Positions 156-28,528 of a DNA stretch of 64,000 bases are shown here, piece by piece. The stretch covers positions 32,001-96,000 of the IMG/VR virus record IMGVR_UViG_3300020049_006862. One strand, given 5' to 3'. Every line of letters starts with the position of its first letter. The first letter of the stretch is position 1. The position numbers were made by a program, and so were the translations under genes. This stretch comes from a virus (taxonomy: Duplodnaviria; Caudoviricetes). Below the pieces are notes generated by a model, which was given only the letters and a program-made list of their open reading frames with translations, made no database searches and was not told the DNA's origin.

Positions 156-1130
156 ATGACTTTCACAGACTTTTATACACCATCAAAACAAGAGATCCTT
201 AACAAAGTAACCGAAGAATCTATCTTCGAACATTTCTTAAACATAGCAGTAGTTCCTGGGCTTATTAATAGCCCATTCAGGCCGGATTCAAATCCATCCT
301 GTTCCTTCTTACGACTTAGAAATGGTGTACTTTGCTTAGTTGATTGAACTAACTATAATTTCATAGACTGCTTCAAAGCAGTGGCTATGAAAAGGAATTG
401 CCATTACAATGAGGCAATAAGAGCTGTCTATGAAGCTATGGATCAGCTACGCCCGACTAAGATTGAATTCACAAATAACTCCGACAATTATTCACTTAAG
501 ATTAAGCTCAAGGAATGGGACGAGGAATCTAAAGCATATTGGCGCAGGTACTATATTAGTGATAATACTCTTACTAAATTTTCGGTATATCCTGTAAGAG
601 GAGCTTCTATGTCTAGACCAGAATATACTAAGTCTTGGAAATGGTCTAAAGAAGAGCCTATGTTTGCCTATCTTAGAATGAATGGCATCAAACTATATCG
701 TCCTCATTCTGATAAAAAAAGTAAGTGGCGTTCGTCTAATTGGGGAGACGCGCTATTTAATTATCACAATCTTCCGCCCAAAGGTGATGTTCTTATTATT
801 ACTTCTTCCGCTAAAGATGCTATGGTTCTAACCGAATGCGGTTTCCATGCTGTAGCCCCTCCTTCTGAGACAGTTAACATTCCAGAAGATATTGTTGCCG
901 AGCTTAAGTCTCGCTTCTCTCATATCTTTATCTTTATGGATACAGATGAAGCTGGCACTAAAGCCAATATTAAGTTATCCAATATTTTTAATTGTTCCTA
1001 TATTATCATACCTAGTAAATACCACAAAAAAGATATTTCTGATTTTATTTATAAACACGGCCCAGTCAAAACCTTTAGATGCCTAAAGCAATGGATGGTC
1101 CGATCAACCACGAAAAATTATGTCTATTAA
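156..1130 (+). CDS. DNA primase (DnaG-like; Zn-finger-like N-terminus plus TOPRIM), 324 aa, one TGA=Trp at 345
   Basis: ORFs 156..347 and 381..1130 join in frame through TGA (LVD-W-TNYNFIDCFKAV). Motifs SPFRPDSNPSCS, LIITSSAKDAM, FMDTDEAG resemble crAss-type primases. Confidence 0.88.
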
Positions 1131-1277: not shown

Positions 1278-1928
1278 ATGCCTACTAATTGGTCTTTAAT
1301 CGAAGGTCTTAAACCTGCTTGGGATTGTTTTATAACGAAAATATATCCTGAATTCATACAAATGGATGCTCAGAAAATGTGCCCACCACCTCAGAAAGTA
1401 CTTAGAGCATTGCAGGAAACTGATATGGAGCAGATAAAAGTGGTAGTTTTGGGAATGGACCCTTATCATAACGGAGCTGCAACCGGGCTCTGCTTTCATG
1501 TAGAGGAAGGTGCTAAAATTCCTGGATCATTAAGAAATATTCAGAGTAAAATATACGAAGAGACTGGGCAAAAAGGAGATTTAGCTTCGTGGCCAGGGCA
1601 AAATGTGTTAATGTTAAATACGGCCCTTACTACTCAAAGAGGTGTGGCAGGAGCAAACATGAAATTATGGGAACCTTTTACTGAAGAAGTACTGAGGTAT
1701 TTGGATACACAAGACGATATCGTATGGCTTCTTTGGGGAGCTAACGCAAGAGACATAGTGAAGAGGATTATCAAGAATCCGACTCACCGATTTATCATTT
1801 CATCACATCCTTCTCCACTGAGTTATCATAAGCCTCTTGGGAAATATCCTGCTTTTAAGGATAGCGTTCCCTTTGGAAAGGCGAATAAGATCTTGGCGGA
1901 AAAAGGTAAAACACCTATACAGTGGTAG
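1278..1928 (+). CDS. ung: Uracil-DNA glycosylase, family 1
   Basis: Motifs KVVVLGMDPYH, ATGLCF, SLRNI, VLMLNTALT, LLWG, SHPSPLS. Confidence 0.95.
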   Translation: MPTNWSLIEGLKPAWDCFITKIYPEFIQMDAQKMCPPPQKVLRALQETDMEQIKVVVLGMDPYHNGAATGLCFHVEEGAKIPGSLRNIQSKIYEETGQKGDLASWPGQNVLMLNTALTTQRGVAGANMKLWEPFTEEVLRYLDTQDDIVWLLWGANARDIVKRIIKNPTHRFIISSHPSPLSYHKPLGKYPAFKDSVPFGKANKILAEKGKTPIQW

Positions 1929-2419
1929 CACTAGAACTTTCCCAACTTGCTAAACCGCTATTGTTTGACTATGAAAATATCAAGTCAACGGTTTGCGTGT
2001 TTGCGAACACTATCCTATTACACGGAGAAATGAAGAAAGGTGGAAGCCTTTACGAAGAGCTGTCCATTGGATATTTCTGTGACATTAACCAGAACATTGT
2101 TGTGGAGGGCTTGAAAACATCGAAAGATGGATTAAGCGCTTTTTACAACCCTGAGTCGGGGGCTTACGGAATTTGCCAGATTGCGCAGCGTAAGACTGAA
2201 GATCTCTACACTTGGATCGAGTTTCATGCCAAATTAGTAGAAAAATTCAAAGACAAAAACGTTGTTTTGTTTCCGATTAAAATTGACGATGAAACACATT
2301 TCGCAACTACTTTTGTTAACATCGTGGATAATTTTGAAGATTCTTTAATAATCCAAGAACTCGCAAAAGACTTCCCTGATAAGGAAACTATAACTAATCT
2401 CTTCACACTAAAATACTAA
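1922..2419 (+). CDS. Hypothetical protein, possible degenerate gamma-glutamylcyclotransferase (AIG2/GGCT-like)
   Basis: ILLHGEMKKGGSLYEEL resembles the GGCT N-terminal motif (hFVYGTLxxG..nh.lL). Lies next to ATP-grasp, GATase and amidoligase-like genes. Confidence 0.4.
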   Translation: MVALELSQLAKPLLFDYENIKSTVCVFANTILLHGEMKKGGSLYEELSIGYFCDINQNIVVEGLKTSKDGLSAFYNPESGAYGICQIAQRKTEDLYTWIEFHAKLVEKFKDKNVVLFPIKIDDETHFATTFVNIVDNFEDSLIIQELAKDFPDKETITNLFTLKY

Positions 2420-2421
2420 TT

Positions 2422-3228
2422 ATGCTTCTCGCACGAACTTCAGAGCACCAGCGGCATTTTGCCAAAAGATTGAATTCCGGAAAAATTACTGTGAATTTTG
2501 GCTCACCAAAAGTGATCAAAGGACCAGTATTGAATAAGACAGAAAACGTAGTGGCCGCCTTTGATCGGAACAAAGCGAACTTTCTTTTGAATTCCTATGG
2601 AATCAATGTTCCTAAAAGCATTAGGGCACAAGATTTGTTTAACAATGATCAATTGGATTTAAGCCGCTTACAAGTCCGCGGCTTTACATACCCAATCATT
2701 GCCAAAAGAAATGGGCTTTGTACTCACAGAGTCTCGATTCTGAGTAGCATAGACGAATTGATGCGAATTTGCCTTAGTGACAACGTTAAGGAAATCAGCT
2801 TGGAGCAGTACATTCGAAATTGCCAAAGTTATCGGATTTACACGATACCCGCTTTGAGCGGTAAGAGTGTGGATTATACTATCAACGGCCACCCATATCA
2901 AGATTCTTTGGGAATCCCGTTCGCTGTGAAACGTAATTTGGAATTGGCGGAAAACAGCAACATGTATAAAACTAAGAGTTATGAAGTGAACGATGCTCTA
3001 AGCATTGAAAGTATGCCGATAAGCTGGTTGTTGATGCTGCGGAGCGCGGTGAAGGCTACGAGAGTGCTGGGTTTGGATTTTGCTTCAGTTGACATGTTGT
3101 ACAATCCGTATTCTACGGAATACTTTGTAGTTGGAGTTGATCCAGATTGTCCATTTACCTCAAGCAAGGAGATCAACGATCAAATCGCTGAAGCCCTTGT
3201 TCAGGGAATCAAACTCATCCTGCCATGA
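2422..3228 (+). CDS. ATP-grasp (RimK-like) fold protein with degenerate active site
   Basis: GINVPK, YPIIAKR, EQYI..YRI and LGLDFASVD motifs present; expected ExN motif replaced by GVD. Ends at TGA in an ATGA overlap (3258 if read through). Confidence 0.7.
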   Translation: MLLARTSEHQRHFAKRLNSGKITVNFGSPKVIKGPVLNKTENVVAAFDRNKANFLLNSYGINVPKSIRAQDLFNNDQLDLSRLQVRGFTYPIIAKRNGLCTHRVSILSSIDELMRICLSDNVKEISLEQYIRNCQSYRIYTIPALSGKSVDYTINGHPYQDSLGIPFAVKRNLELAENSNMYKTKSYEVNDALSIESMPISWLLMLRSAVKATRVLGLDFASVDMLYNPYSTEYFVVGVDPDCPFTSSKEINDQIAEALVQGIKLILP

Positions 3229-4532
3229 TTACCGTATCGAAACATCAGAGTTCTCTAAAGGAGTCGAAGCTGTTTGAAAGGCTTGATCATTATATGCGAA
3301 AATTGGAAAATGATCCTTCTAATTTTTTAGAAAGAAGTCTGGCCAGTAAAAGAGCTGGAGGGAATCTGAAAATTATAAGAGAAAAAGCTTTTGAAACTCT
3401 TTTAGGCATTTTCGAAAGGGATGATATTTTCAAGCAGGTTACATGGGCAACTGAAGATGAGGCTAACTTAATCATTAGGACCAATATTCACAGAACATTA
3501 GGAGCCAGTATGGATGATAACATGCAGCCTTTTGAAGATTCAGGAATACTGTTTTATCAAGATGGTGTTGTAACGAACTACGCTGAACTCGCTAAGACTT
3601 ACGACATTCCGTATATACCAGGAAGACACTCAGATGCTTATGTTGTGTCTCAACTTTTCTTTAAGTTCGGTGAAGAAATTTTCCAATACTTAGAAGGAGA
3701 GTATGCTTTTGTTTGGACAGTTGAAGATGAGATCTTTACTTACAGTAACATCCCATTCTATATCTACCGGAACAATGAAGAATTCCACCTGACAACTTCT
3801 GTCGTAGTTAGTAATTTTCTACGGACTCTGATTCAATCCTTTCCTGAAGAAGAGCAGCTGAATTATGAAGTAATTGATGAGAAAGAACCGCTTATATGGA
3901 TACATACCGAACATAATGCTCAACCGGAATTAAGTCGCACCTACCCTAACACTTTTAATTTTCATTACTCAGGAATAGGAAATAGATTGTTAGACATTGA
4001 TTTCAAGGAGAACTTGACAATGAATGAACAAGGAGCTATAGTACCTGCGGTAGATAGCTTACCTGTTGTGTTGGAGAAAGGAAAGCTCATGTTTTGGAAT
4101 AAAGATAGATGGGTAGATTTATACACGTACATTACAGTATGTACGGACGAACCTGTCATTTATCCCCTTTATTCCGGGGCGAAATACGAAGTGAGTATTA
4201 CTAGGACTACGTTGAAAAAAATAGAAGCTTCCAACAATTGGGAACGAGCTTTATTTAATAAACTAAGCTTTGATCAATACCGGAAGTATTTTAAAGTGCC
4301 AGAAGTATTGCCTACCTATGTACATCCAGCAGAAGATGAAAAAGAATCATTGTTTGTACTTCTCATAAGAGCGCTTGCTAACTGTCCTCGTTACGAGGAT
4401 TCGTTTCAGCAAGGTATAGCTATCTTAGGAGTCGTGTTCAAAACGATGATGGAAAATCATGAAGATAAATCTGCTCGCCGAATCTACAAGGTACTAAAGA
4501 GATTACATGACTACATAAAAGACAAGCAGTGA
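3225..4532 (+). CDS. Class II glutamine amidotransferase-like protein, apparently inactive
   Basis: NMQPF...FYQDGVVTNYAEL...HSDA...LEGEYAFVW parallels the GATase-II pattern NAHPF...HNGxIxN..EL...DSE...GxYA; no N-terminal Cys. Ends at TGA in a TGATG overlap. Confidence 0.6.
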   Translation: MITVSKHQSSLKESKLFERLDHYMRKLENDPSNFLERSLASKRAGGNLKIIREKAFETLLGIFERDDIFKQVTWATEDEANLIIRTNIHRTLGASMDDNMQPFEDSGILFYQDGVVTNYAELAKTYDIPYIPGRHSDAYVVSQLFFKFGEEIFQYLEGEYAFVWTVEDEIFTYSNIPFYIYRNNEEFHLTTSVVVSNFLRTLIQSFPEEEQLNYEVIDEKEPLIWIHTEHNAQPELSRTYPNTFNFHYSGIGNRLLDIDFKENLTMNEQGAIVPAVDSLPVVLEKGKLMFWNKDRWVDLYTYITVCTDEPVIYPLYSGAKYEVSITRTTLKKIEASNNWERALFNKLSFDQYRKYFKVPEVLPTYVHPAEDEKESLFVLLIRALANCPRYEDSFQQGIAILGVVFKTMMENHEDKSARRIYKVLKRLHDYIKDKQ

Positions 4533-5635
4533 TGGAAACCTACAGAGACATAACTTGCAAACTCAGATCAACAACACCGTTTACCGTTAGCGGTAAAACC
4601 ATTACAGGCAGAGAGGGGAAGTTTGAATTCGACCCTTTGAAAGATGCAATGGTGAATGGTGTCTACGTAAAAGGTGTTACTCTCGAGCTACTTGAGGATA
4701 AGCCTTGGAACCACAATGTATATATGTATGCTGATCCAAAACTACATTTAAATATTGATCAGGATACAATTGACCGAAATAAGATGTTCTACTCCAGCCA
4801 GATTACTGGAAATCCTAAGTTTGTATACGATAAGCCTTACGTAACTTTGAAAAAAGAGTACGAAGGATTAAAGTATTTGACTGAAAAGATAACAACAATT
4901 TGGAGTAGTGGAGTGAATCAATTGTATCCGAACGAAATTCTGTACCGGTTAGGGGGACACTTAAACATAGACATTACTGGCTATTGCGTGAAAACAAAAG
5001 ATTATTATGATCCTACCATTTTTCAAGCGGTTCATCAGTTGTCTGAATTTATCCAGTCAAAAGGATCTTACCGGAGAAACTTCGTCAAAGTTCAAGGACT
5101 TACTGCCCACGAATTAGTCGCAGTTTACACAACATTTTGGAAAGTGCAGGACGCAATAAGAGAGTTTATTCCTCCTTCACTTTGCGCAAAACGGCAACCT
5201 TTCTTAGGAAACGGTCATGATGATTTAATCTTGAAAAGATGGCGTAAGCTGTCCGCTCTCGATTCTCAGTTTCCGCTCACCATCGACTCAGATGGTGCAG
5301 TGACATTTAGCTCCCACCCCGCAACGCCCTGTTGCTTTAGGACAATCGCCTGGCTAACTATCTGTTTAGCCATTGTCCAATACGCTAAATATCATTCTGA
5401 CGAAATCATCATATCCGTAGCTATGGGGTACAAAACTTCCCTTACTCGCGACATACTGAAGTGGGCCGAACAACAATGCACTACTACTGAAGCTACTGAA
5501 TTGCTTCAGAAGATAACTCGGTATGTTCATAACGAAAGTGACGAGCATATCCGAATATTGACCGAAGTACCTCTTCCACAAAGAATGAGATACTACGAAG
5601 ATAATTATTTTGATAAACCCTATAATGAAATATAA
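4529..5635 (+). CDS. Amidoligase (COOH-NH2 ligase)-like protein with degenerate motifs
   Basis: GGHLNI corresponds to CGxHVH; AVTFSSHPAT..FRTIAWLTICLAIVQYA corresponds to TxEFRxHxxT..KI..W..IC.A.V.YA; gene context agrees. Confidence 0.55.
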   Translation: MMETYRDITCKLRSTTPFTVSGKTITGREGKFEFDPLKDAMVNGVYVKGVTLELLEDKPWNHNVYMYADPKLHLNIDQDTIDRNKMFYSSQITGNPKFVYDKPYVTLKKEYEGLKYLTEKITTIWSSGVNQLYPNEILYRLGGHLNIDITGYCVKTKDYYDPTIFQAVHQLSEFIQSKGSYRRNFVKVQGLTAHELVAVYTTFWKVQDAIREFIPPSLCAKRQPFLGNGHDDLILKRWRKLSALDSQFPLTIDSDGAVTFSSHPATPCCFRTIAWLTICLAIVQYAKYHSDEIIISVAMGYKTSLTRDILKWAEQQCTTTEATELLQKITRYVHNESDEHIRILTEVPLPQRMRYYEDNYFDKPYNEI

Positions 5636-6014
5636 GAATAAAATCAGTGGAGGCTTCAGATCCGGACTTGAAGAATGATGCTCGGAACACCTACACAAAA
5701 ACGATATCAAATTCTGGTATGAGGGTAAAAAGTTTACTCTTGTACCAGGATTTGAATCGACTAGTCCCTCATTTGAAGTAGTCGGAAAAACTAAGAAATA
5801 TAAATCAGTTACTACTAAGATCCGTCCAATAACATATACGCCCGATTTTGTCGGGGATTCTTGAGTAATAGAGACTAAGGGATTTTTAACCCCTGACGCC
5901 AAACTCAAATGGAAGTTATTTAAAAAGTATCTAACTGATAATAAGATATTTTGTCTGTTATTCATGCCTAGAAATAGGAAGCAGATAGAAGATACAATTA
6001 ATACTATATTATGA
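5625..6014 (+). CDS. Endonuclease I-like / PD-(D/E)xK resolvase-type nuclease (missing from ORF track); TGA=Trp at 5676 and 5862
   Basis: FRSGLEE-W-C...YE...ITYTPDFVGDS-W-VIETKGF...LKWKLFKKYL. Third TGA (6012) lies in an ATGA overlap with the next gene; read-through would end at 6068. Confidence 0.85.
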
Positions 6015-7036
6015 AACACTGAGAAGATCCCAAAAGGTCAGAAATCTATTATCAAACTCCTGGAATAAGCAACTCGCTTCTAAAGCTGGTTAGCACTCCT
6101 CTACTTCTTCAACAGAAATTAAAAGGCGAGCATGTACAAGCTGACAAAGAACATTTTAGAGTAGGAAAGGCTATCGACTGTTTACTTACATCACCAGAAC
6201 TCTGAGAAGCAGAGTTTGATGTAGTATCAGCTGAACGTCCTTCCGGTCTCTTAGGCCTCTTTGCAGATAACTTGCCAGAAGGTCTAACACCTCTCTCCTC
6301 GCTCGAGCTATACGAAGAAGCATACAATGCTTCGGGCTTCAAGCTTCCACTAGAAAGAGTAGTTAACATCTTCTGATCTAAAGGTGATAATGTATTTTAC
6401 TATGAGAAAAAATACGAAAAATCAAACAAAACCATCTTATCACGAGGTGAGATGGAGAAGGTCGAACTTGCAGTAGATCAGCTAAAGAAGGCTGATTATA
6501 CACACAAGTATTTTTGGCCTGCTGATAACACACGATTGATTACTCAAGTACCCATATACTTTAAGTACAAAGATTTAGATTGTAAAGGCCTTCTTGATGG
6601 CATCGTTATTGATGACGAAAAGAAAACTATACTTCCGTATGATTTGAAATCGTCTTCTTGGGGAATTAGAAACTTCCCTCTCGTTTATAAAAGATTTAAA
6701 TACTATAGACAAGCAGCGTTTTATCAACACGCTGTTCTTAATCATTTTATTCCAGAAGAAAATTTACAAGGTTACGAACTATTACCATTCACTTTTATAG
6801 TGACTTCCTCGAAACGAGGAATACCGGAAATGCCTATTATCTATAAAGTAGAATCTCAGGACTTCAGATTTGGTATGCAGGAAATAGATGACGCAATAGA
6901 ACAATATAAGTGGCACGTAGAGAACAACTACTTTGACATGTCTAAGGAGCAGTTTGAAAACAGCTCCGAATATTGGGTTAGTTATTTTTCACCCTCGAAA
7001 GAGGATCAAATCTTTGAAGATGAAACAATCAGTTAA
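6011..7036 (+). CDS. PD-(D/E)xK exonuclease (RecE/ExoVIII-like), 341 aa; TGA=Trp at 6020, 6203, 6374
   Basis: Continuous frame from ATG 6011 (ISNSLLK, FRVGKAIDCLL) into track ORF 6452..7036 (KGLLDGIVID, YDLKS, YYRQAAFY). Confidence 0.85.
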
Positions 7037-7259
7037 TGACAAGATTCTTGAACCAATAGTAACATCTGCTTACTTTGGATTTTTTGCTTTCTGGATCGTG
7101 CGATGCTTTCCAACTAGATGGGATTTCGCCGCAAATCGATATAACGAACATATTGTATGGGGAAGATTTGGAATGGAAGCTTGCGGAATCGCATTCTTAT
7201 GCGTATTTATTTACGTAATAATTACTGTTTTTGAAGAAGCACACAAAAAATACAACTAA
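7020..7259 (+). CDS. Small membrane protein (two predicted TM segments)
   Basis: ATG 7020 in the frame of track ORF 6933..7259; two hydrophobic stretches. Confidence 0.6.
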   Translation: MKQSVNDKILEPIVTSAYFGFFAFWIVRCFPTRWDFAANRYNEHIVWGRFGMEACGIAFLCVFIYVIITVFEEAHKKYN

Positions 7260-7261
7260 CG

Positions 7262-7495
7262 ATGAATGGCTTTAGAACAACCCAGAAAAATTTGTCTCGC
7301 TTCATTAAAGAGCAAGGAGAGTTAATTCTTTGGTCTATGTACTCTTTAGTACCTATAGGCGTCAGTATGGCTATCTGCGACATGCGTGAATTGCATTTTG
7401 GGTGGAGGCTTGCTTTGTGTGCAGGTACATTTTGCTTGGCGATGCGCTTTGGGGCTGGAATTAGATGGATCGTTGTTAACAGAGAACGCGATTAA
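7262..7495 (+). CDS. Small membrane protein (two predicted TM segments)
   Basis: 77-aa ORF with two hydrophobic stretches, followed by a terminator. Confidence 0.6.
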   Translation: MNGFRTTQKNLSRFIKEQGELILWSMYSLVPIGVSMAICDMRELHFGWRLALCAGTFCLAMRFGAGIRWIVVNRERD

Positions 7496-7519
7496 AAATA
7501 TAGTGTAGGTGATGAGAGG

Positions 7520-7552
7520 AGGGGTAGCATCGAAAGGTGTTGCCCCTTTTTT
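7520..7552 (+). terminator. Rho-independent terminator
   Basis: GGGGTAGCATC-GAAA-GGTGTTGCCCC followed by TTTTTT. Confidence 0.85.
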
Positions 7553-7604
7553 ATTTTAGTTAACTTATTCCACTAAAGCTTTTTACTATTAAAAAAGAAT
7601 TATT

Positions 7605-8105
7605 ATGGAAAAAAAGAAATTGAATAAGAGTGCAGCCTTCGTGTTGCCTCGGACTGGTTTGGATTATACCAAGTTGGTAGGGTTGGGAATCGATAATACT
7701 TATTTGTTCTCGACAAATTCAACAGAACCAGAGATGCACGTAGTGGTCAGTTCTACACTGACTCCTGAACAAGATCAATGAATGAAAACTGCTGGAAAGA
7801 ACTATAAAGAAACACGCACTCATCAGGAGAAGCCTGTGTACGTATACTCTTTCACGGAGGAGGACCAAAAGAATATTGTGACTCCGTTTCTCAAAGGAAA
7901 GTATTCAGAAATTGATCGTGACTATGTAAAAACATTTGACCGTTGGCAAGTTGTTGACGGTTTCTACGAACCCTCTAAGACATACATGATCTTTACTAAA
8001 GATACTCGTCTGAAAGAAGATTGGGAACAAAAGATTGGAGTGGAATTCACAGATGAACAAGAGGTATGGTCTCGACCTTTAATCGAGAATGAAACCTTAG
8101 CCTAG
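7605..8105 (+). CDS. Hypothetical phage protein, 166 aa; TGA=Trp at 7779
   Basis: ATG 7605 (MEKKKLNKSAAFVLP...) is in frame with track ORF 7782..8105 across one TGA. Confidence 0.75.
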
Positions 8106-9994: not shown

Positions 9995-12900
9995 TTAGGG
10001 TCGTATCTGAATATCCTGTTCTGTTGCATTCTCGATAAACTTATTGATATCGTAAGCAGCAGATAAAAGAACTATGTGTCTTTGTAACTGATTGATTCCT
10101 CGGAAATCTCCATCCTTAGTAAATGCTCGTTCATCTCCAGCTACGTAATAAGCAGAGCCTATAAACATATCTGAAAGAGCAGTAGATAATCCCCATGCTT
10201 GCCTTGCTGTTGCTGGCCAAGCATTGTTCGAAAGAGTATCCTTCATTACTGCGTACACGTTCCAACTCTGAGAGTAATTCTCCATAATTCTACGGTAATA
10301 TTTTCTCCAAGAGTTATCGTCGTCTGCGCCAGCAAAGAGTAGTAAGTACCCGCCCATAATTAATCCTATGGTGGCCATTGTAACTATAAAGTCTACAACT
10401 ACTTCTCGCTGATATTCGGAAAGCTCATCCCACTTGTATGCCTCGTTAGAATACTTATTAAGTCCAAGTCTAGAAAGAAGTTTAAAAGCTTTTGAGTCAG
10501 TAGGAACATCCCATCTAAGTGGGAGCAATGAACCTAATAATCCAGTAAGTACTCTCCATCGTCCTTCCATAACTCTGGCGTGCCAAGTATAAACATCCTC
10601 TGTTCCCTCGAGCTTTTTGTAGTAGCCCCAAGTCTCAATGGTACCTTTAGTTGCGAACATATTCTTAAGTAAGTTCGGAATGAACTTCTTAAACTGTAAG
10701 AACAGTTCACCTAAAAGATAGTACTCAAGATGTGTGCGTTCATCTGGACGATATCCACCATTGATATATTCGTATACATAATACATGCGACGTATTTCAT
10801 TAGTATCAAGTTCGCCAAGTTCTCTAAGAGAGCCGTCAGGATTTTGAATCTTACCTCTTATATGGCCATCTCAACGTACATCTTTGTAGGTAACGCCTGA
10901 AGCATCGACTACATCTTCTACGTTGTATCTATCCCATAAAGACTTACCAGCAGTTTTCATTCGTCTCATCTGTGCTGCCATAGTTATCAGAGCAATTCCT
11001 TCTTCTGGAATTCTGTGAAACATGTACATAGTAGAAGAGGAGAACATATGATTACGAGTAGTCTTATACTGAGTAGAGTCAAGCGACCAATCATAAGCAT
11101 TAGGCATGTAGTTAAACTTCTTAGCAAGAAGGAACATCTTGTTCTCTCTAAGTTTACCCATCATAGCATCTTTCTGCATGTTAAAGTATTCTTTACTGGC
11201 CCAAGCAACGTCTCTTACTGTAAAAGAAACTTGATCACCGTCTACACCAAACATTGGAGCACCAGTGCTAAGACTGCCTTTTAGCCCTTCTTTAAGAAGA
11301 ACCATGTAAGTAAAGACACCATTAGCCGTGCCAGCAAGAGGTTTTAGCCACATGATAGGGGCAGCCGCAGCTGACTTCAGGGATCGAATAGTCTTAATCC
11401 AGTTAATTCTATTCATACCCCCAAACTCGTTTCTGAGACCACTTTCTTGCCTATGTTGTAAAGGTTTAGTAAGTTGCCATTTACGTCCTCGAACTTGCAT
11501 TTCTATCGCTGTTTCTAAGTACTTAATAGTATTAGAGTAATCTACTCCAGTACGATTATCACCTTTAAGTTGTAGATAGAACTGCATAGCTTTACCAATT
11601 GTATAGATATTATCTAACTCATCTTTATAGATTAAGTTACGCATCATCTTATCAAATTGAGCTTCAGCATTGAGCGAATAGTTCTCAGAAGAATCTATAT
11701 ACTTGTTACCGAGATACTTGATAGGAATCGCTTCTACTTCATTGAAAGTTTCTTCGTACGTATCTTCTACATGAAGAGTGAAATTCTGTTTAATGAATTC
11801 CTCGCGATAAGACTTATTAAGTATAGTCCCATGTTCTTCAAGCATTTTATACGTTTTAGGAAACCACCCGTCGTAGTGCTCGTACTTTTCGTATCCTTTA
11901 AATAAACGCTGTTTGTTCGTCAGATCTAAGTTACTTAAGATAACATTAGAAACATCTCCTCTATCAATAGCTATACCAACAGTAGCAGCTTTCCCACCTA
12001 CTTTTGTAAGTTCAGCTTTATAGTGCTTGTTCATGTAGTCTACTAATTTGCGTCGAGTTTCCCACTCACCAAGTTCCGGGTAAGCTATTTTAGCTTGTGC
12101 CCATTCCTGCTCAGTAGTGCGCATCTTCTTACCTAAGTTCTCACCTGTTGATGCATCTATTCTATCAGTATACATCCATTCCCAAATCCGAGTAGAAGAA
12201 TATAAGTTCAGCTTCCCTTTTAATCCCGGAATATATTCAGTAATAGATTTACCGTGCGCTTTCTCGTAATCTGAGACAATGACATCACGCATTTCCATAA
12301 ATGGTCTCCATATCGCATTATATCTATCGTTAGCTTTCTGCTTTGCTTCCTTCAAGTTCTTATCAAAGTATTGGAGATAAGCTGATTTCATGTTAGCATT
12401 AGAGCCTAACCATAAAGACATAGTACTGATATCTTGAACACCTACTAAGCCGCCTTCAATCTTATCCTGATATTTAAGTATCTTGTCGAATAACTCGGCA
12501 GCTTTATTTACGTTAAGCGTTTTCTGTTCAGAGAATTGTTTCTCGTGATCATACAACACCAAAGCACGAAGTTGCTCCATATCAGTTTCAAGCTGAGCTT
12601 TGATAGCTCTATCTTGAAGAACACTCTTAGCGGCAGTAGTAGAGGAAGCATCGTATTCTTTAGGATCAAAAAGTTTTCTGAAGTTTTCTTTACTCATCTT
12701 AGATTGAAGGTAGTCGTACATCGACTTATCTCCTTTCTTCATTTCGTACTTCATTACCTTTTCAATCATCTCTAAGAACGGTTTAACTTCTACCTTAGCT
12801 CTATGGTCATACAACAGGGCATTCTCTTTAGAAGGAACCCAAGCTATCTTAAGATCTCTAAATCGTACATCTGGCTTTTCAGTCTTAAGTAAGAAAGCAT

Positions 12901-15900
12901 AAAGCATAACCTGCAACTTTGCCATATTACGAGGAGACTGGCTAATTAGCATATCTTCAGAAGAGCCCCAACGAAGGATCATATTGTTAGTTTCCTTGTT
13001 GAATCCCCAACCTGATTTCATCTCAATTAAAGAAAGAAGATTGTCTGGGTGATACACCATGATATCCACAGTACCAGCCATATCAAGTAGAGAAGAGTGC
13101 ACCGTGAATTCAGGCACAATTCTATCCTTGTCTTCTTCCGGCACCGCATCAAAAGTATTGACTCCCATCTTTCGATAGATGTCCTTGTAAAAGTCATTCT
13201 CCGTCACCCACTTGTAAGTGCCTTCAGGAAGATTTCCTTTAATCTCAAGATCAGATATCCTTTGTCGAATCTTAGCTTGTTCCTCTTCACTTTGAGTAAC
13301 TGCTAGCTGCATGTATGCGTGCATCAAAGAACCCTTAGATTGAAGTTCATTTTGCTGTCCGCGAAGGATTGCTTCATATTCTTCTTCTGTAAGATTAGTT
13401 CCCCGATCAGTATTTCTGCGTGTACCTTTCTCAGCTCCCTCAAACCATTTCGCCGCTTGAGTAGAGGCCCAGTCATAGGCATCATCAGTAAAAGGTCTTG
13501 GTCTAAAGAAGTTAAGAGCACCACTTACAGCTTCATTTATGCGAGTAAGTTGTTCACCGCCTTTGATATAAAACTTAGAGTCTTCTGAAGGAAGAGAAGC
13601 AGTATTCGAGTATTCTTTCAAATCCTGTAATCCAGGAGGGTCGTTAGGATTTCTCTCTACTGCGAAGTATACATCCTTAGTTTCAGAATCAGCTGTTTCT
13701 ACTTTATGTACGTATTCTTTGTAAGAGTTTCCTTTTGCGTCTACAGAATCTTTCTCTTCAACTTCAAGAACTCTTACAATACGAGCTTGAGTTCTAAAAA
13801 CATCTAAAGCATTATATATGTAGAATTTTTCTCCGACATCAATTTTTACTCTTAAACTAACATCATTAAGAGCGGGGTTACGTACCTGATGAGTCATGTA
13901 CTCAAAGCCGTAGCGTTCTTTCAGAGGTCTAACCTTGATTGCGAATTCAAAGTCCTCTATTCTAAGATCAGGAACCATAACATGAGTTTCTCTAGCAGCA
14001 ATTCGTTTGTACAAAGCGCGAGCTATTGGAATTCCTTCTTTTGTAACTCCGGCTACTGTACCCATTAGTACGTATAAAGTATTGTCTACTCTGCGCTCCT
14101 CACGATCTCTAAACTCGGTTCTGAACCATTTCATAGGTTCCGGCATCTCACCTTTTTCGTTGAGCTTAAGCTCAATTTCACGGTCAAAATAACCCACACC
14201 TTCTTCAAACCCAGCGTAAGGGGAATTAAACTTCTTGGTATTCTGAGGTCTTTCTACAAACTGAACTCTGTTTCTAGCTCTTATTGAAGTATCCGCTACC
14301 TGAACTTTCTTTATGTTAGTTATCATTAAGTTAAGTTCGAAGTTGTCAGCTATTTGGTCAATACGCTCGGTTCCTTTTACTACTAATAAGTTATATTGAG
14401 AATCTTGGTCAGTAATCTTATCGTAAGGGATCTTAGAAGAAAGAGAAGAACTCTTAAATTTCAAACCCTCAAAGATCATTGCAAAATCTACAATAGCATC
14501 TTGAATAGTAGTATCGTTTCCTTCAGGATCAAAAGTAAATTTCTTCGTCTCCTTATTCCAAACAAACTTCGATAGTTCATAGAAGTTTTCACGGAGCTCT
14601 TGGAGATCATCAAACAGCACTTTGCCTAAGCCTGTAAGCCTAGCTTGAGTTAAGTCTCCAAAAGAAGCTATCTCAGTAGATTCTACAAGTCTATTCAACT
14701 CTTTCAAACCAAGTCTAGAAGCTCTTACGTCTTCAGTCCTTGCAGCCGTAATATACTCTTTTAAGAGTTTAGCATAATACATAGGCCCATATTCGTAGCT
14801 CCGTGCAGCAGGATCATAGATCTTAGGGTCGTGGAGTTTCTCATACATAACAGCAGAAGCAAAGTACTTACTCAACTCTTCGAGTAAGGTCGCCTTGTCC
14901 ATTTTGTTTTCCCCCCAACTATCAAAGTGCGGCAGTAATCTGGTAACCATAGACATATACTTAGGCCCGTAGATCTGTACATTAGTAGAAATAGTATACA
15001 TCAAATTATTGTGTATATCTATAGAAGCCCCGATGTGAGGATTCTCTTGTACGAAAAGAGGAGCATCAAAAGCAAATGAATCACGGAGAACTGCTTTACT
15101 AGTGTTACCTTCAAAAGGAGATCTAGTATCAGAAGTAGGTAATTTCTGCTGCTGGATACCTGTAAATATTCCTCCAAGTTTGGTATCTAATTTTACGATG
15201 TCCGTAACAGTAGAAGGAAAGCTTCTAAGAATTTTTAAGGATGTAGCAAGTTCACCTATATCTTCACCAATCAAGTGCGCTTTCTGGTAAATCTCAAGAG
15301 CAGCTATTCGTTCAGCTATACTACCTTCGCCTTTAACTACTGCGGCAAGTCCAGTATCACTTAGTAAAGGAATCTCTTCCCCTTCTTTAAGTTGTTTTCT
15401 CAAAGCAGCAATCTGATCTTTAATTTCTTTCTGCTGATTATAAACATTAAACTTGTTAATGTCCTTAATCTCAGGAAGTTGTAAGATCTTAACTGCTTCG
15501 TATAACGGCATACCTAAAGCAAGCATAGCTACAAGAACATTACCTGTCTTAATATTGATACCCAGAGGATATAAACCTTTCTCTTTCAAGTTGTCAATAG
15601 CAAGGTTTACAAGTCCGTCTAAGTATTGCCAAGAAGAGTGGCCAGATTGTAGGTCTTCATTCTGAAGCTGGTTAAAGTCGAGTACTTTACCTCCTACTTC
15701 CATTTGCCAGGCAAGTTCTGGTTTAACGAAAGGTCTTCCTTTATCAGGAGAACCTGTTGCCAAATAACCTAGAGCTTTCATAGCATTAGCAAAAATACCT
15801 GTAAGTCTAGCACCATCTTGCATAGAAGCGAAGGCTGTGTACCTGTTATTAACAAGAGACAAGTCAGTATCAATTCCTAAACTAGAATCAATTCCATCTT

Positions 15901-18900
15901 GACGAAGTTTATATAAAGCAGATTCTGGATTCTCGGGATTATTAAAGACTGACATAGTAATAGGAACGAGAACTCGATCCCTATTCTTAGGATCAGTAAT
16001 AATTGAAAGAACATTCTCGATGATGATTGCCTTAGCAAACTTCTGTTGAATTTCTTTCCAAGCCTTTTCTACCAGTGCCCTTTCTTTCGTATTCCGTTCG
16101 TCAATACCAGCAAGTTTCAGATCGAAGTACATCTGATACTCACTGTATAGTTCTTTCTTAAAGACATATTTACCACCTTTCTTTTCGTAGCCTACATAGT
16201 CAGTAGCAATGTCCCCAAGTAATAATTTCTCACCTTTGGTGAATTTCTCACGAACTACTACAGTAAGAGTATCAACGTCAAAATCAGATCCGTGTAAGTA
16301 TACTACCTGAAACGGAACAATAATTACATTAGTGTCTTGAGAATCATAAATACCTACTACCTTAAGTGGAATAGCTGAGTGAAGTTCAGTCGAAGGGAGG
16401 CGGAAACCAAACATGTCAGCAGTAAGGAATATTTCTTCGCCGCGTCTAACAGCAGCTTCAAGTTCTGGATCAAGCATTCCTTTAGGAACAAAAGATTCAG
16501 CATAATAGCTGTTAGCTGTTTTGACGTATCTAAGTGGTTTATCTCTCTTAGGAAAATTAGGATTATTATACTTTCCAGTATACTCCTCTGCCTGAAGCAC
16601 AAGTTTAGCGCCTTTGAATTTCACAGCGACGGTAAACTTCTCCATGATAGCGGAGAGCTGTGAAATTACCTTAGGAGCTACAAGAGGATTCATAAATGAA
16701 ATACCAGCCTTAAGCAAGTCTTGTACTACTTCAGAACCTGGAGAAGTAAGGGAACTAGTCAACTTACGACGCAAGTCAGTTTCGTTAAACTCATCCAATC
16801 CTTCTCTGAATAAGAAGTTCAAAGCTCTGTATACTTCAGTAGCAGCTTCAGTGTTAGTTTCTAAGATGTTTAGGAAGTAGGTTAACTGGGTAAAGAGTGA
16901 CACCTTCTTATCCACCTTAGCTTTAGCATTGAACTGTAATTTGTAGTCAGCATTGTTCAAACTAAGAACAGAAAGAGGATTAGCCTCTACATTACCTAAA
17001 CCATCTACTGTATTCATAGCTCCTGCAGGAGGATTACCTACCTTCAAAGCACTATTAAATACCAGCTCATCCAGCTCATTCTTAGTCATGTACTCATTTA
17101 CCTTCTGGAATTCAGGGAAATTATCTATAAGTTCTTTTGAAAGGACTACAGAAGAATACTTAACATAAGCTGGTCGAGGTTCCATTACATTCTCTGAATC
17201 TTCACCGGCAGTTGTTTCTTGAATAGAGTTACCGAAATAAACTGGTTTGTTTACCTTACCAAGTCCGTAAGCAGCACCGTAACCATTGTGTAAATCAGCC
17301 CATCTTTGAGCAGACATAAATCCTTGAGCATCGGTAGATTTGAAATCTTCGAAGAATCCTAACATCTCTTCTAATCTCTCAGGAGTAATATCTGGAATCA
17401 GATCTTTTAAGAAAGCTTCAATAACAGCCTTACCCCTCTTACGGTCATTGATTACGCCCATTCTAAACTTCTCTTTCATCCCTCCAACAGACTCGCCCAC
17501 TAAAGGAGATTTACCTGGAGCAAGAATACCGGCCATACGCTTGACGATATCATCTTCACTTTTGTAAAGATTATAAGGTCCAGTGAATAACTGATTAAGG
17601 TGGTAAGAATTGACATACTCATTCATTACGAAAAGAGTGACCAATGGTTGATAGTACTTAGCTATTTCCTCTTCGTTATACTTAGGATTAGACTTCCTAA
17701 CAGCTATGGATTTAGGTAAAGTATCTGGAACTTTTAATTCCTGTCTGAGCTGCGCCCCGACAGATTTAATTCCAAATATAGAACCATATAATGCTTCAAT
17801 ATTAGGAGCAAATTCAGCATTGTTATCGAGAAGCTGATTCATGTATTCAACTGCCTTAAGCTCTAATTGAGACATAATGTTGTCTACCAAAGCGTCTTCG
17901 GTAGCATTTTCTCCTAGCTGTTCAACAGCTTTATCGTACAAAGAGAACATTAAGTTCTTCTTCTTAGTTACACCAAGAATAGAAGAAAGATTTAACGGAG
18001 TTTTAACCTGTCTTACAGCTGCTTTTAAACCTTCTTTTACTTGAGCCTTGGTTAACACGTTAACTTCTACACCTGGAATACGCGGCTTATCTGACGGCTG
18101 GTATAAGAAGTTTATATACTTACCATTCGAATTACTACGTAACATATCTAAAAAAGCAAAAGAGAACGCGCGCGATTCGAAGTGCGCAGAATTCTCATTA
18201 GTAAATGTCTTTACAGTGCCGGTAGATTTATTATTAGAAGAATCGTGCTCAGCGTGTCCGTGTATCTTGTTAATACCTTTAACAAAGATGTTGTTCGAGA
18301 AGAAATCAGTCTCTAAATGTTCAGGCCTATTTTCAGCCATAAACTCTAAACGACCAGTTGAACCTAAAACTTCTGAGTCTTTAGATTTAGTAAAGTATTC
18401 TACAATCTTATAAAAATAAGACGAAGCAGAAAACTTATACATAGAGTTCTTGTCACCATTAAGAATTGAAGTCGGTCGAAGAGAGAGGCTTTGTTCTTTA
18501 GCAAGCTTAGATAAAGCAGCCATGAGAGAGAAGGAATCATTCAAAAATTCATCTAAATCTTCAGCTGGTTTAAGCTGCATCGCTCTCTTAGTAAAGAAAC
18601 CAAACTCAGTAATAACATTAAGAACTGTAGAGTTCCTATTCATATTAGGTTTGATTGGTTCAAATACATCAGTAAGCTTAAACGCTTTGATATAAAGGTT
18701 AGCAGCTCTAGCTGGATCAACAGCTTTCAGTCTTTCGGCTTCTTTCACATCTTCAGAAAGAGCAACCGAAGCAAACCCTTGTTTAAGATGTATAGCTTCA
18801 AGATTAGCTCTAACATAAGAAAGATAAGATTTTTCTATACCATATCCAGATGCTTCTACATAGCTGAACTTCATTCCTGTCTCAGGATCTTTCTTACTCG

Positions 18901-21900
18901 GTACAGGTACGAAGCGCTTAACAGCAATCATATATCTCTTCTCAACAAGTGATCCAATACTATTCTTAAGTTCGCGCAAAGTGTTACGAGCATTAGCCGC
19001 AGCCATTTGTTCGTTAAACTCCTTAATATTAGTTACTATACCATCAGCAAGAAGCTTCTTATACAAAGACCGATAAGATCCGATGTGATTGTAGATGTAC
19101 TCAGCATTTTGAAGTTTAGGAGAAGCGTAGCTTTCGTTCACTAAGTTAGCATCTTTTACTACACGAATTCTAGAACCATTAAACTTAGACTCTATAATGT
19201 GAAATCTTACAGAAGGATTCTTTTGTGCTCCTTGAGCATCATGTACCAATTGATCTAACTTAGCCATAATAACCTTATCAAGACTTGCAAACTGTCCATC
19301 ATTTGCTCTCTTTTGCTTCTGCCAATTGTCTAAATTATTAAGATCAAAGTTTTCGAGAATAAGTTGAGTTGCTACTACAAAAGTATGCGATGGGTGAATG
19401 TACTTATCTTTTGAAGCAAGGTTAGAAGGCTTGAATGGATTAGGTAAGAAGCTTAGAAACTCTTTGATCGAATCACTAAGTCTAGCCTCTTCATCCACCA
19501 AAGATGAATCTTCAGTCTCATTCTTAAGTCCTTCAGAGTCTGAAGCAGTATCATTAAGAACAAAGCTTTCGAGTTCGGAGAAGAACTCAATTTCTTCTTT
19601 ACCTATTACTGATGCATTAGGATAAACAAGTTCTAAGAGAGTAAAGAACAGTTCTTTTCCTTCTTTATCTTGTTTAAGTAGCGCATCCAGTGCGGACAAA
19701 CTCTTATGCTCTATTTCAGTTTTACCCTCTTTACGCGCTAAAGTTCTTCTCTGATTCTTCAAACTATCTAAGGCAGAAGTAATCATCTCTTCTTTGGAAA
19801 GCATAAGCTTTGTTTCAGAGAGGAAGTTACCTTCTACGTGATTATTCAAGAAAGCATGAAGAGCATCGTACATCAAGTTCCGAGCAATGCGGAAGTTAAT
19901 TACGCTACCAAAGTTAGCTTGCATAAATGCGGCAGTCTTAACATTCATGTTAGGAGCACTGAACTTATAGTCTTCATTCTTTGGCATTTCGTTCAAGTTA
20001 TCTACAAAGCCTTTCCAATTAGCGTTTACAAAAGTAGTCAAGGCCTCAATACGATTACGAAGTAAGTCAACCATGATAGGAAGATCCTTTTCGTACGTAA
20101 TAAGTTCAGCTAACACCTTCTGCATTTCTATTGCACCTGCGTTACGGCCAATCATTCCTTTGTTAGCAAGCTGTACGAACAATTGATTCTTCTCTTCTAT
20201 GGTAAGAACCTTGTTCCACATAGAATTGATTACCTCAAGAAGTACTCCTTCATAGTATAAAGGAAGTCTGTTAATAGCAGCCTTGGCTAATGCTTGAAAA
20301 GGTTTCATAATCGATCTAAACTTAGAAGGGTCTGGTCCTTTGGGAAACTCTTGAGCATACTTGAATACATCTTTAGTAACTGATTCAGATGTAGTGGCTT
20401 CAGGGAATAGAGCCTGAAGTACAGTCTTACCTCCTTCAGGAGTATATTCACGTATCTCTTGAATAATATCTATTGCTGATTTCTCAAGTGCCCAGAATTC
20501 ATCGCCAGTTTGATCTTGAATCATTTCTTGTTGAAACTTCGCTAATTCAGCAATCTTTGTTGATTTTTCTGAATCGCTAAGATCGGTAGATGCTATTATC
20601 TCTTTAGCCTGTTCAAGTAAAATAGGATCTGTAAAGGTTGCTACTAAATCAAACGAAAGAGTAACTGGAGCAGTAGTTGTTGAAGGATCTAAGTATAATT
20701 TCAGAGCAGCTAAAGTCATGTCATAAACATTACTCTCACTTAAACCTAAGAATTCAAAAATAGCTTGTAATACTCTAGAAAGTAAATTACTATTCTTAAC
20801 AGGAATAGCTGATGCTACTTCAGCAAACTTAGGATTAGAAAGGTTAGCTACAAACTCTGCAATCGGAAATATAGCTTCATTATCCTTAGCTCCTTTAGGA
20901 ATCTCAGTACCTTGCATGATTGTCTCCAAATCAAGATTGTTAGTTTTTACGTACTGTAAAAATATGTCTCTCAATTCAGTTAAACGCTCTTTCAATTCTT
21001 GCTCTTTTTGAGTAGGTTTAGGATTCTGAAGAGCCTTTATAGTTGCTGCATGTGTTAATTCGTGAGCATAGATTTCTCCAAATTTTAAGAAAGACTTTGC
21101 CGGGTTATAAACAATTATAACATTCTTACCGTCCACAAATGTTACAGCCGAGAAATCCTCAGGCATGGAATTGACATCAAGAACAGGTGTCATGAATACA
21201 TTTGTAAAATCAGCCACAGCTAATGTTTTAGCTAATTCCTGCCCAGATTCAAGTTGAGAGGCATTACCTTCTGCCTTTACTTCTGCGTCGAATTGTAAGT
21301 TAATTAAAGTTTTTCCTCACTGAGACAGATTTGATTCTAGAAATCTTGCACCTCCTCCGATAGTCGTAATAATTGGCAACTCTCAGTTCTGAAAGTTAGA
21401 CCAGCCTTTGAGTTTTATTTCGATACGAATATCGCCTTTCCCTGTTTGAATATTTCCTAACTCTACATTAGGAATATTTCTCTCAAATCATTCAGTCAGA
21501 ATAGTCTTTAAACTTTTACCTTCGATTGGCACATAATCGAAGGTTACTTTTTTAGTATCATTGTCATATCCTATTTCAAAGAAGTCTTGTATTTCTTCTG
21601 GTATAAGCTCGTTCCCAACTTTGCTAAGTTCTTCCTGTCTTCTCCTTTCTATGTCATCTATTTTAGCATTATCTACTATTGGTTTAGCTATTGAGATAGA
21701 TCCTGAATAAAGAGTAGGATCAACCTGAGTTAAATTATTCTTATCGTAATTCTTACGTATAGGAGTAACAACTTTAGGTTTAGCTGGTTCAGAAGGAATA
21801 GTACTAAGACCTACAGTAGTAGGAGTAACTTTCTGAAGCCTTGAATGCATCAAAGAAGAAAGACGATCAATACCTTTAATGTTAGTTCCTTTTGCTACGT

Positions 21901-27900: not shown

Positions 27901-28528
27901 AAGCTGTCTGAGTATTTAGACCTGTAGCTGTATTTACTTTAGTAAGAACATCGGCTAACTTTTTACCTTGTCCCATACCGTTAAGTAACTTGGTAGCAGA
28001 CCCTACTTTAGCAGTCAATGTGGAAGGAACATAAGCAGAAGCTAAGAAAGCTAAGGCATCATACCCATCTCTAGCCCAAAACTCTGCAGTTCCTGCACGC
28101 TCTAAGAAGTTACCTTCAGCATATTGCCTAGAAATATGTACTGGAGCTGAATCTTTAATTCCTTGTTCTAAAGAATTAAAAGCATTCACTATCCCATTAT
28201 CTCAAATATCATTTACTTTTCCTGGACCCATTGCCCATAGAGCGCCGCCTACATAACCTAGACCGGCACCTACTTTTGGCAGTATAGAAAGGCCTGCAGA
28301 AAACAAGCCATTCACATGTTTCTTAAGAGCTGACTGTTGCTGTCCTCGATAGTACATTTGTTCTATCTCAGGACTTAACAATGAACCTTCGTAGACTGCG
28401 GAAGAGATTCCCTTATCATACTTTCCCAATTGTCTAAGCGGAGAGAATCCTGTGCGTTGGGCAGCTACATTAGTTGTGGGTCTAAGGCCAGATAAACCCT
28501 GGCCCGGACCTCCATTATTTTGTGTCAT
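9995..28528 (-). CDS. Giant virion RNA polymerase polyprotein (6177 aa): SF1 helicase-like domain, zincin protease-like domain, two-barrel RNAP, PD-(D/E)xK nuclease-like domain, C-terminal TM segment
   Basis: Four track ORFs join in frame via TGA at 28202, 21488, 21383, 21317 and 10871. Motifs GVLGSGKT/IVIDEA/GDPSQ/YTAIGRA (~24.0-24.9 kb), HELTH (~21050), GSDFDVD (~16280), AGTVDI..IEMKSG (~13050). Confidence 0.85.

Follow-up and report, generated by a model that had tools for sequence, protein, structure and literature searches.

This study concerns a block of four open reading frames (ORFs), A to D, on the + strand at 1922-5635 of the window, by which we mean the whole 64,000-nucleotide stretch of DNA analysed: bases 32001-96000 of the 110,204-bp IMG/VR virus record IMGVR_UViG_3300020049_006862, which is rated 66% complete. 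The portal is ~30% identical to Crassvirales portals, and two giant ORFs on the - strand are likewise consistent with Crassvirales; as judged from these proteins, the source is a distant crAss-like phage. An earlier note, made from the letters alone, had put ORFs A to D forward as a strong candidate for an undescribed system, in which a GGCT-like protein, an ATP-grasp protein, a class-II glutamine amidotransferase (GATase-II) and an amidoligase had all lost their catalytic residues.

Linked genes for COOH-NH2 ligase, amidoligase, GATase, ATP-grasp and GGCT proteins occur in LUZ24-like and phiEco32-like phages, where their function is predicted only (PMC3890496; PMC10580990); gene tables place them at gp16-gp22 in LUZ24 and at phi32_77-86 in phiEco32 (PMC3890496). 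Prediction of the cassette is credited, in a passage of PMC10580990, to Iyer, Abhiman, Burroughs and Aravind 2009. An experimental function for any version of the cassette was not found in the literature searched, and neither was a paper combining 'crAss-like' and 'amidoligase'. The block in the window is made up as follows.

1922..2419, + strand: ORF A, 165 amino acids, GTG start, TAA stop; family unassigned
2422..3228, + strand: ORF B, 268 amino acids, ATG start; RimK-type ATP-grasp homologue
3067..3147, + strand: Mg-site region of ORF B, residues 216-242 (hhalign, hidden Markov model (HMM) and MAFFT concordant)
3225..4532, + strand: ORF C, 435 amino acids; GATase-II N-domain and C-terminal region
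3225..3839, + strand: N-domain of ORF C, residues ~1-205; class-II (Ntn) glutamine amidotransferase fold
3840..4532, + strand: C-terminal region of ORF C, residues ~206-435; no relatives detectable
4529..5635, + strand: ORF D, 368 amino acids, GTG start; probable Amidoligase_2 (glutamine-synthetase-fold) homologue

The description of four intact, tightly coupled ORFs given in the earlier note holds. Upstream, the TAG that ends a UDG-superfamily gene shares bases with the GTG start of ORF A, the ATG of ORF B lies two bases after the TAA of ORF A, and the overlaps of B with C and of C with D read ATGA and GTGA. The probability that frames of this length would be open by chance at the local composition ranges from 9e-6 (ORF A) to 6e-14, and each of the three + frames contains 59-81 stops across the block, every one of them outside the called ORFs. 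The start of ORF A is uncertain, with the GTG at 1922 and an internal ATG, codon 37, as candidates. The choice of genetic code makes little difference to the four ORFs: reading TGA as Trp (code 4) lengthens ORF B, whose stop is the TGA within ATGA, by 10 amino acids and ORF C, whose stop is the TGA within GTGA, by 7. Promoter-like sites within the block are no more numerous than in shuffles, and a convincing terminator was not found inside it.

Family assignments and active-site motifs

Nine phage cassettes, with that of Cellulophaga phage phi14:2 in addition, served as the reference set. The motifs MCG/CGL, HNG, ExN, GxExE, HxH and EFR are kept in every reference version, including phi14:2.

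ORF C matches Pfam GATase_6 at 1.5e-7 (32 bits, cut-off 27) and GATase_7 at 3.7e-7, and AsnB-type NCBIfam models at 1e-4. When its residues 1-210 were compared by hhalign with the GATase N-domains of the nine reference cassettes and two remote homologues, the probability was 97.4%, with E 1e-11 over residues 10-202. On these profile matches the N-domain is a class-II glutamine amidotransferase homologue, as had been proposed. Enzymes of this class require an N-terminal Cys. In ORF C the MCG of the family reads MIT, so the nucleophile is missing, and the first Cys of the translation lies near residue 306; HNG reads QDG, with loss of the oxyanion Asn; and GHNRYAT reads RTNIHRT, the Arg of GHNR being replaced by Ile. 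The Asp of VDSE is retained (SDAY). Both the missing Cys and the change of HNG to QDG, which the earlier note had pointed out, appear in the MAFFT and hhalign alignments alike, and as aligned the canonical catalytic residues of ORF C are clearly lost. The C-terminal region gave an hhalign P of 0.35 against the C-terminal regions of cassette GATases, and an exhaustive HMMER search with ORF C returned only two weak GATase matches, both to the N-domain. Upstream of the ATG, in the same frame, 3147-3224 reads TTG...TGA...SPCSGNQTHPA, which, with TGA read as Trp, would give a possible 26-residue leader overlapping the end of ORF B.

ORF D gave zero matches in Pfam, PHROG and NCBIfam, and PF12224 did not match it even at E 10. 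Against a profile of 57 amidoligase sequences hhalign gave P 1.1e-3, and comparison with Amidoligase_2 clusters of the Atlas gave a feature score of 0.94 (191 shared features) and a structural TM of 0.51. An AF2 model built with a multiple sequence alignment (MSA) of the family has a pLDDT of 57 and a glutamine-synthetase (GS) fold, with GS, GmaS, Dop, YbdK, GCL and PafA as its best structural neighbours (Z 5.8-7.7); a Foldseek search of the model against PDB returned nothing at E <= 0.001. This fold mirrors the family sequences that the MSA contains and cannot serve as independent proof for ORF D. Taken together, the profile and motif comparisons indicate that ORF D is probably an Amidoligase_2/GS-fold protein; the proposal that it is an amidoligase thus finds support, of a modest kind, in the hhalign P, the Atlas score and the collinear motifs. 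Four of these motifs read as follows.

GxExExE: reads GVTLELLE; first Glu replaced by T51, E53 and E56 kept
RCSTHxHxD: reads RLGGHLNID; second His replaced by N146, R140 and H144 kept
KYSALN: reads KLSALD; K240 kept
GSIEFR: reads GAVTFS; Glu replaced by T259 and Arg by S261, G256 and F260 kept

The family residues retained in ORF D are G49, E53, E56, D79, R83, R140, H144, R182, K240, G256 and F260, and those replaced (family position, then ORF D) are E33 to T51, H100 to N146, Y175 to L241, N179 to D245, E190 to T259 and R192 to S261. In GS-fold ligases, residues of the EFR and HxH sites contribute metal and phosphate contacts. The reading of HxH as HLN and of EFR as TFS, made in the earlier note, was recovered in the MAFFT alignments, in which the canonical catalytic residues of ORF D are clearly lost. 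Several cassette amidoligases (L010:5968-6918, L011:5422-7125 and L004:2716-3891) have an acidic tail whose last residue is aromatic (...WIDEVPF, ...DDDTANF, ...TEPDMY), resembling the C-terminal tail of SSB; such a tail is absent from ORF C and ORF D.

ORF B was recognized by hhalign against the cassette ATP-grasps (80%, E 1.6e-6 over 226 columns; 85%, E 6.3e-6 with phi14:2 added), by BLASTP to the phi14:2 ATP-grasp g038 (about 5e-5 to 6e-5) and by the NCBIfam model TIGR00768 rimK at 7.6e-5, well under that model's trusted cut-off. An HMM of the cassette ATP-grasp family picked it out as the sole significant frame among 676 genome frames (E 7.9e-5), and tblastn in the phage collection gave 14 weak matches, mostly annotated as ATP-grasp or RimK-type proteins (S6 glutaminyl transferase). 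By these comparisons ORF B is the RimK-type ATP-grasp of the cassette family, in agreement with the earlier assignment. Its Mg-site strand LGLDFASVD is retained, including D224, and the family sequence VLEVNTAPG reads VVGVDPD, with E265 replaced by G238 and N267 by D240, followed by D242. The Mg-ATP triad (Asp, then Glu-x-Asn) is thus incomplete, the Asp being kept and the bridging Glu and the Asn replaced. The change of ExN to GVD, also noted before, is borne out by the alignments, and the nearby Asp-Pro-Asp could compensate for it; the canonical catalytic residues of ORF B are therefore described here as probably lost.

ORF A lies just upstream of the ATP-grasp gene, the position of GGCT in phi14:2. 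It gave zero matches in Pfam, PHROG and NCBIfam, and PF06094 (GGCT/AIG2) had no match anywhere in the genome record. Against GGCT proteins hhalign gave P 0.07-0.8 and shuffling a z of 0, Smith-Waterman comparison with the phi14:2 GGCT gave z -0.1, and MAFFT placed gaps in ORF A opposite the GGCT LEGY, which holds the catalytic Glu. Since profile, shuffle, Smith-Waterman and motif comparisons were all without signal, we rejected its assignment as GGCT/AIG2; the 'HGEM' that had been read in place of YGTL has no alignment support. Two other candidates were also rejected. An Atlas score of 0.94 for serpin came from only 160 shared features (recognition 2081) and was judged spurious. A Smith-Waterman z of 5.4 against the phi14:2 RusA stems from one lineage-specific K/E-rich string; z was about 0 for 18 other family members, hhalign gave P 0.05-0.14 and PF05866 did not match. 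An AF2 model made without an alignment (pLDDT 36) was unusable. A relation of ORF A to GGCT or to any other family is, at the level of these comparisons, not detectable.

Could ORFs A and D both have been misassigned, leaving B and C as the sole derivatives of the cassette and A and D as unrelated phage proteins in which motif loss is meaningless? ORF A is without any family support and ORF D without a Pfam, PHROG or NCBIfam match; the hhalign probability for ORF D is only 5-21%, and its AF2 model was built on the family MSA. Nevertheless, 26 of the 30 Atlas clusters nearest to ORF D are Amidoligase_2 (PF12224), six family motifs occur in it in order in two independent MAFFT runs, its best two BLASTP matches among 130 reference ORFs are amidoligases, and it follows directly on the GATase, as the amidoligase does in phi14:2. 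We regard joint misassignment of A and D as very improbable. The claim that all four enzymes had lost their catalytic residues can accordingly be kept in part: the loss is clear for C and D and probable for B, and for A no relation to GGCT was detected.

Gene context and comparison with phage phi14:2

Three further genes place the block in a replication module.

156..1130, + strand: Toprim DNA primase, upstream of the block; one TGA must be read as Trp
1278..1928, + strand: UDG-superfamily gene (PF03167 1.3e-10; 2e-19 to the phi14:2 UDG g042)
6011..7036, + strand: RecE/exonuclease VIII-like gene, downstream of the block; three TGA read as Trp

The primase was identified by Pfam Toprim_2 and a PHROG primase match (to the 381-1130 part), by the code-4 ORF 156-1130 and by BLASTP to the phi14:2 primase (1e-22); the exonuclease by phrog_412 (2.8e-13, to the 6452-7036 part), by its code-4 ORF and by a match to the phi14:2 exonuclease g046 (5e-9).

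The closest counterpart of the block is the cassette g037-g041 of phi14:2 (NC_021806), a member, like the source phage, of the Crassvirales. Its genes run primase, GGCT, ATP-grasp, COOH-NH2 ligase, GATase, amidoligase, UDG, RusA and exonuclease, and those of the window primase, UDG, A, B, C, D, nuclease and exonuclease. The two share the upstream primase, the adjacent UDG, the downstream exonuclease and the order ATP-grasp, GATase, amidoligase. Primase, UDG, ATP-grasp and exonuclease of the window match those of phi14:2 (1e-22, 2e-19, about 6e-5 and 5e-9, respectively), indicating the same cassette in the same place, with adjacent ATP-grasp, GATase-II and Amidoligase_2 genes beside a primase. 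The two also differ. UDG lies ahead of the cassette in the window and after it in phi14:2; the window lacks a COOH-NH2 ligase and a recognizable GGCT, both of which phi14:2 has; ORFs C and D are shorter than their counterparts (435 versus 638 and 368 versus 515 amino acids) and carry the substitutions described above. Every catalytic motif is kept in phi14:2: YGTL, ExN, a Cys after a 31-residue leader, HNG, GxExE, HxH and EFR. That leader, in the GATase g040 (L017:7202-9118), is hydrophobic and directly precedes the catalytic Cys (...NNVIS/CGLFGW), which suggests a propeptide or membrane anchor.

Cassettes of the phiEco32/LUZ24 type have the same three enzyme families beside a primase/helicase gene, and ORFs B and C match their profiles significantly. 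Their order is reversed relative to transcription (amidoligase, GATase, ATP-grasp, GGCT, primase), and the podophage versions, unlike the window, retain the catalytic residues, the COOH-NH2 ligase and a gp17-like gene. The best scores of the window against these podophage outgroups are lower than those of phi14:2, at 27.7 versus 59.7 bits for the GATase and 37 versus 57 bits for the ATP-grasp; the phi14:2 amidoligase itself reaches only 24.6 bits against podophage amidoligases. Searched with family HMMs, the 110-kb record, rated 66% complete, yielded no frame for a COOH-NH2 ligase (PF14395), a gp17-like protein or GGCT (best E 0.58 and 1.1), and the search for an active copy elsewhere that the earlier note had recommended revealed no second copy of the cassette families in that record.

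The cassette is absent from the crAss-like phages cr4_1, cr130_1 and crAss001. Three large IMG/VR relatives, reached through UDG and RusA searches, are also without it, RusA directly following the primase. Two IMG/VR records rated complete (119.9 and 120.2 kb), to which the phi14:2 RusA led, show this arrangement of primase and RusA with no cassette. Among the relatives of phi14:2, gain or loss thus affects the whole cassette at once, and its distribution is patchy.

Homology of ORFs B, C and D to the known phage cassette, asserted earlier, is thus supported by both profiles and synteny. The same synteny (primase, cassette, UDG, exonuclease) makes 'undescribed system' an overstatement: in terms of sequence and gene order, the block is a diverged crAss-lineage counterpart of a described cassette, degenerate and in the same place, rather than a new system. 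It appears reduced to three recognizable genes and one unassigned ORF, the COOH-NH2 ligase and a recognizable GGCT being missing.

Some features of the surroundings deserve separate mention. From 1278 to 5635, UDG and ORFs A to D contain 21 TGG and zero in-frame TGA codons (7 TGG and 0 TGA in the UDG-superfamily gene), and ORFs B and C terminate at TGA. Within the flanks (156-1130 and 5523-8105), the primase, the nuclease, the exonuclease and two small ORFs each require 1-5 TGA to be read as Trp, and code-4 ORFs appear for the primase, the nuclease and the exonuclease. The TGA-free cassette block may reflect translation before a code switch, or a separate history. The giant - strand ORFs (3448 and 2233 amino acids; 10871-28189) fuse under code 4 to a 6179-residue frame, g-2_49671. 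A strong 16-bp hairpin, AGAAAAGGGAAGGGGG...CTCTTCCCTTTTCT, lies at 106-142, directly upstream of the primase gene.

Relatives, variants and selection

The locus had no DNA match in 50,697 phage records, and the search for homologous proteins returned nothing but ORFs C and D themselves, which are singletons among 5.8 and 1.8 billion proteins. Searches for related loci with ORF C and with the portal found none, and those with UDG found two, both lacking the cassette; sequence searches of PDB with ORF B, ORF C and the amidoligase profile gave nothing relevant. Some sampled words of the locus were present in public sequencing runs, 10 of which, from nine studies, were listed; none of the listed runs was an RNA run. 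Variants were taken from contigs of four runs from four studies (freshwater, wastewater and sludge), as a partial list at depth 2-4. The contigs are mostly identical to the locus, and a few are 3-12% diverged. The changed codons are distributed as follows.

ORF A: 1 synonymous
ORF B: 4 synonymous, 0 non-synonymous
ORF C: 4 synonymous, 1 non-synonymous (L283F)
ORF D: 7 synonymous, 7 non-synonymous, all within one diverged loop

Overall, 16 changed codons are synonymous and 8 non-synonymous (8/24 versus 79% expected; P 1.8e-6), and in ORFs A to C alone one of 10 is non-synonymous (P 6e-6). R83 of ORF D is preserved despite a two-base change of its codon (CGA to AGG). Sequencing errors are not expected to favour synonymous sites. 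These variants argue that ORFs A to D are under purifying selection.

The genes could instead be decaying remnants, drifting toward the deletion seen in cassette-free crAss-like relatives. Such decay would fit the patchy occurrence of the cassette in Crassvirales, where it is missing from the three named phages and the three large IMG/VR relatives, as well as the prior loss of the COOH-NH2 ligase and GGCT and the greater divergence of the cassette proteins from phi14:2 than of the neighbouring replication proteins. However, 3.7 kb of frame is uninterrupted despite divergence beyond BLAST detection, translational coupling is intact, and near-identical fragments recur across four studies, which sampled freshwater, wastewater and sludge. 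The predominance of synonymous variants, together with the intact frames, therefore argues against simple decay, and the contention that the frames had been kept, rather than left to random decay, is upheld by the 16 to 8 codon count and by the chance-open probabilities of 9e-6 to 6e-14. We consider decay improbable.

Possible role of the block

Hallmark catalytic residues have been lost from two enzymes of the block, the GATase and the amidoligase, and probably from a third, the ATP-grasp. ORFs B to D may persist as pseudoenzymes that serve in binding or as a scaffold, a reading to which we give a probability of about one half. Their canonical chemistry, in which ATP drives amide ligation and glutamine hydrolysis feeds it, would no longer be performed. 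The three proteins would be kept as pseudoenzymes that still fold and that would probably still bind the ligand or protein target of the cassette, or one another, without modifying it; they would act as a factor for binding or scaffolding that is produced along with the replication genes. A partial precedent is lengsin (PDB 2j9i), one of the structural neighbours of the ORF D model (Z 5.1), a GS-fold protein kept without its ancestral activity; it is eukaryotic, is a single gene and is related to ORF D by shared fold only, and serves as a precedent for a GS-fold non-enzyme. A bolder proposal, which we advance only tentatively, is that the whole pathway has been converted jointly and that selection now maintains it as a complex without catalysis, which binds or scaffolds and is expressed alongside the replication genes; such a complex might, for instance, sequester whatever ligand or host target is modified by the intact cassette.

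Several observations weigh against retention as pseudoenzymes. 'Dead' is judged here solely by analogy with GlmS/AsnB, RimK/Ddl and GS-fold enzymes. In ORF B, D224 and the D240-P-D242 sequence, the latter on that face of the strand from which the Glu was lost, could still bind Mg. About half of the family-invariant residues are kept in ORF D (E53, E56, R140, H144 and R182), which would leave it with a partial active site, and its homology is modestly supported, with no PF12224 match and a shuffle z of 2.2-2.5. An in-frame Cys lies nine codons before the ATG of ORF C. Its use would need a start at TTG 3147 and TGA read as Trp; the latter is seen in other genes of the same phage, and the intact phi14:2 GATase also bears a 31-residue leader ahead of its Cys. 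In the MAFFT alignment, however, the stretch between I2 and the first conserved Arg of ORF C is closer in length to that of its nearest homologues than is the stretch that starts at the upstream Cys, and the residues that follow this Cys are polar where those of the homologues are hydrophobic. Finally, the selection test uses an incomplete list of variants, taken from contigs whose depth is 2-4.

Some of these observations would equally suit enzymes that are active but re-tooled, with a changed chemistry or substrate. ORF B would then use D224, D240 and D242 for Mg-ATP and ORF D its remaining Glu, His and Arg residues, and ORF C would be a non-hydrolytic subunit binding substrate or ammonia, or would employ another nucleophile. 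Purifying selection on the genes is compatible with this, as are the acidic D240-P-D242 adjoining the lost Glu, the kept D224, the persistence of E53, E56, D79, R83, R140, H144, R182 and K240 in ORF D and of the VDSE Asp in ORF C, and the fact that crAss-type cassette proteins are highly divergent anyway, as the 24.6-bit score of the phi14:2 amidoligase against its podophage relatives illustrates. The difficulty lies with ORF C, whose first ~300 residues contain no Cys, although class-II GATases need one at the N-terminus, and in which HNG and the Arg of GHNR are altered as well; moreover, ORF D has lost both EFR residues and one His of HxH, and the COOH-NH2 ligase and GGCT partners are missing. 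Re-tooling therefore seems to us rather unlikely, and we prefer the reading of ORFs B to D as retained pseudoenzymes.

The cassette is present in hundreds of phages, and in the literature searched its product and target are without experimental determination. The block provides a natural 'catalytic-dead' control for the intact cassette of phi14:2. Should the proteins prove active, they would show how far the active sites of the cassette can drift. As it stands, at least two of the enzymes have lost their catalytic residues while the genes remain under selection, which would suggest that the proteins have a role beyond catalysis, in binding, assembly or as a decoy. The block would then be a rare case in which several enzymes of one pathway became pseudoenzymes together, and the target-binding role of the cassette could be studied separately from its chemistry.

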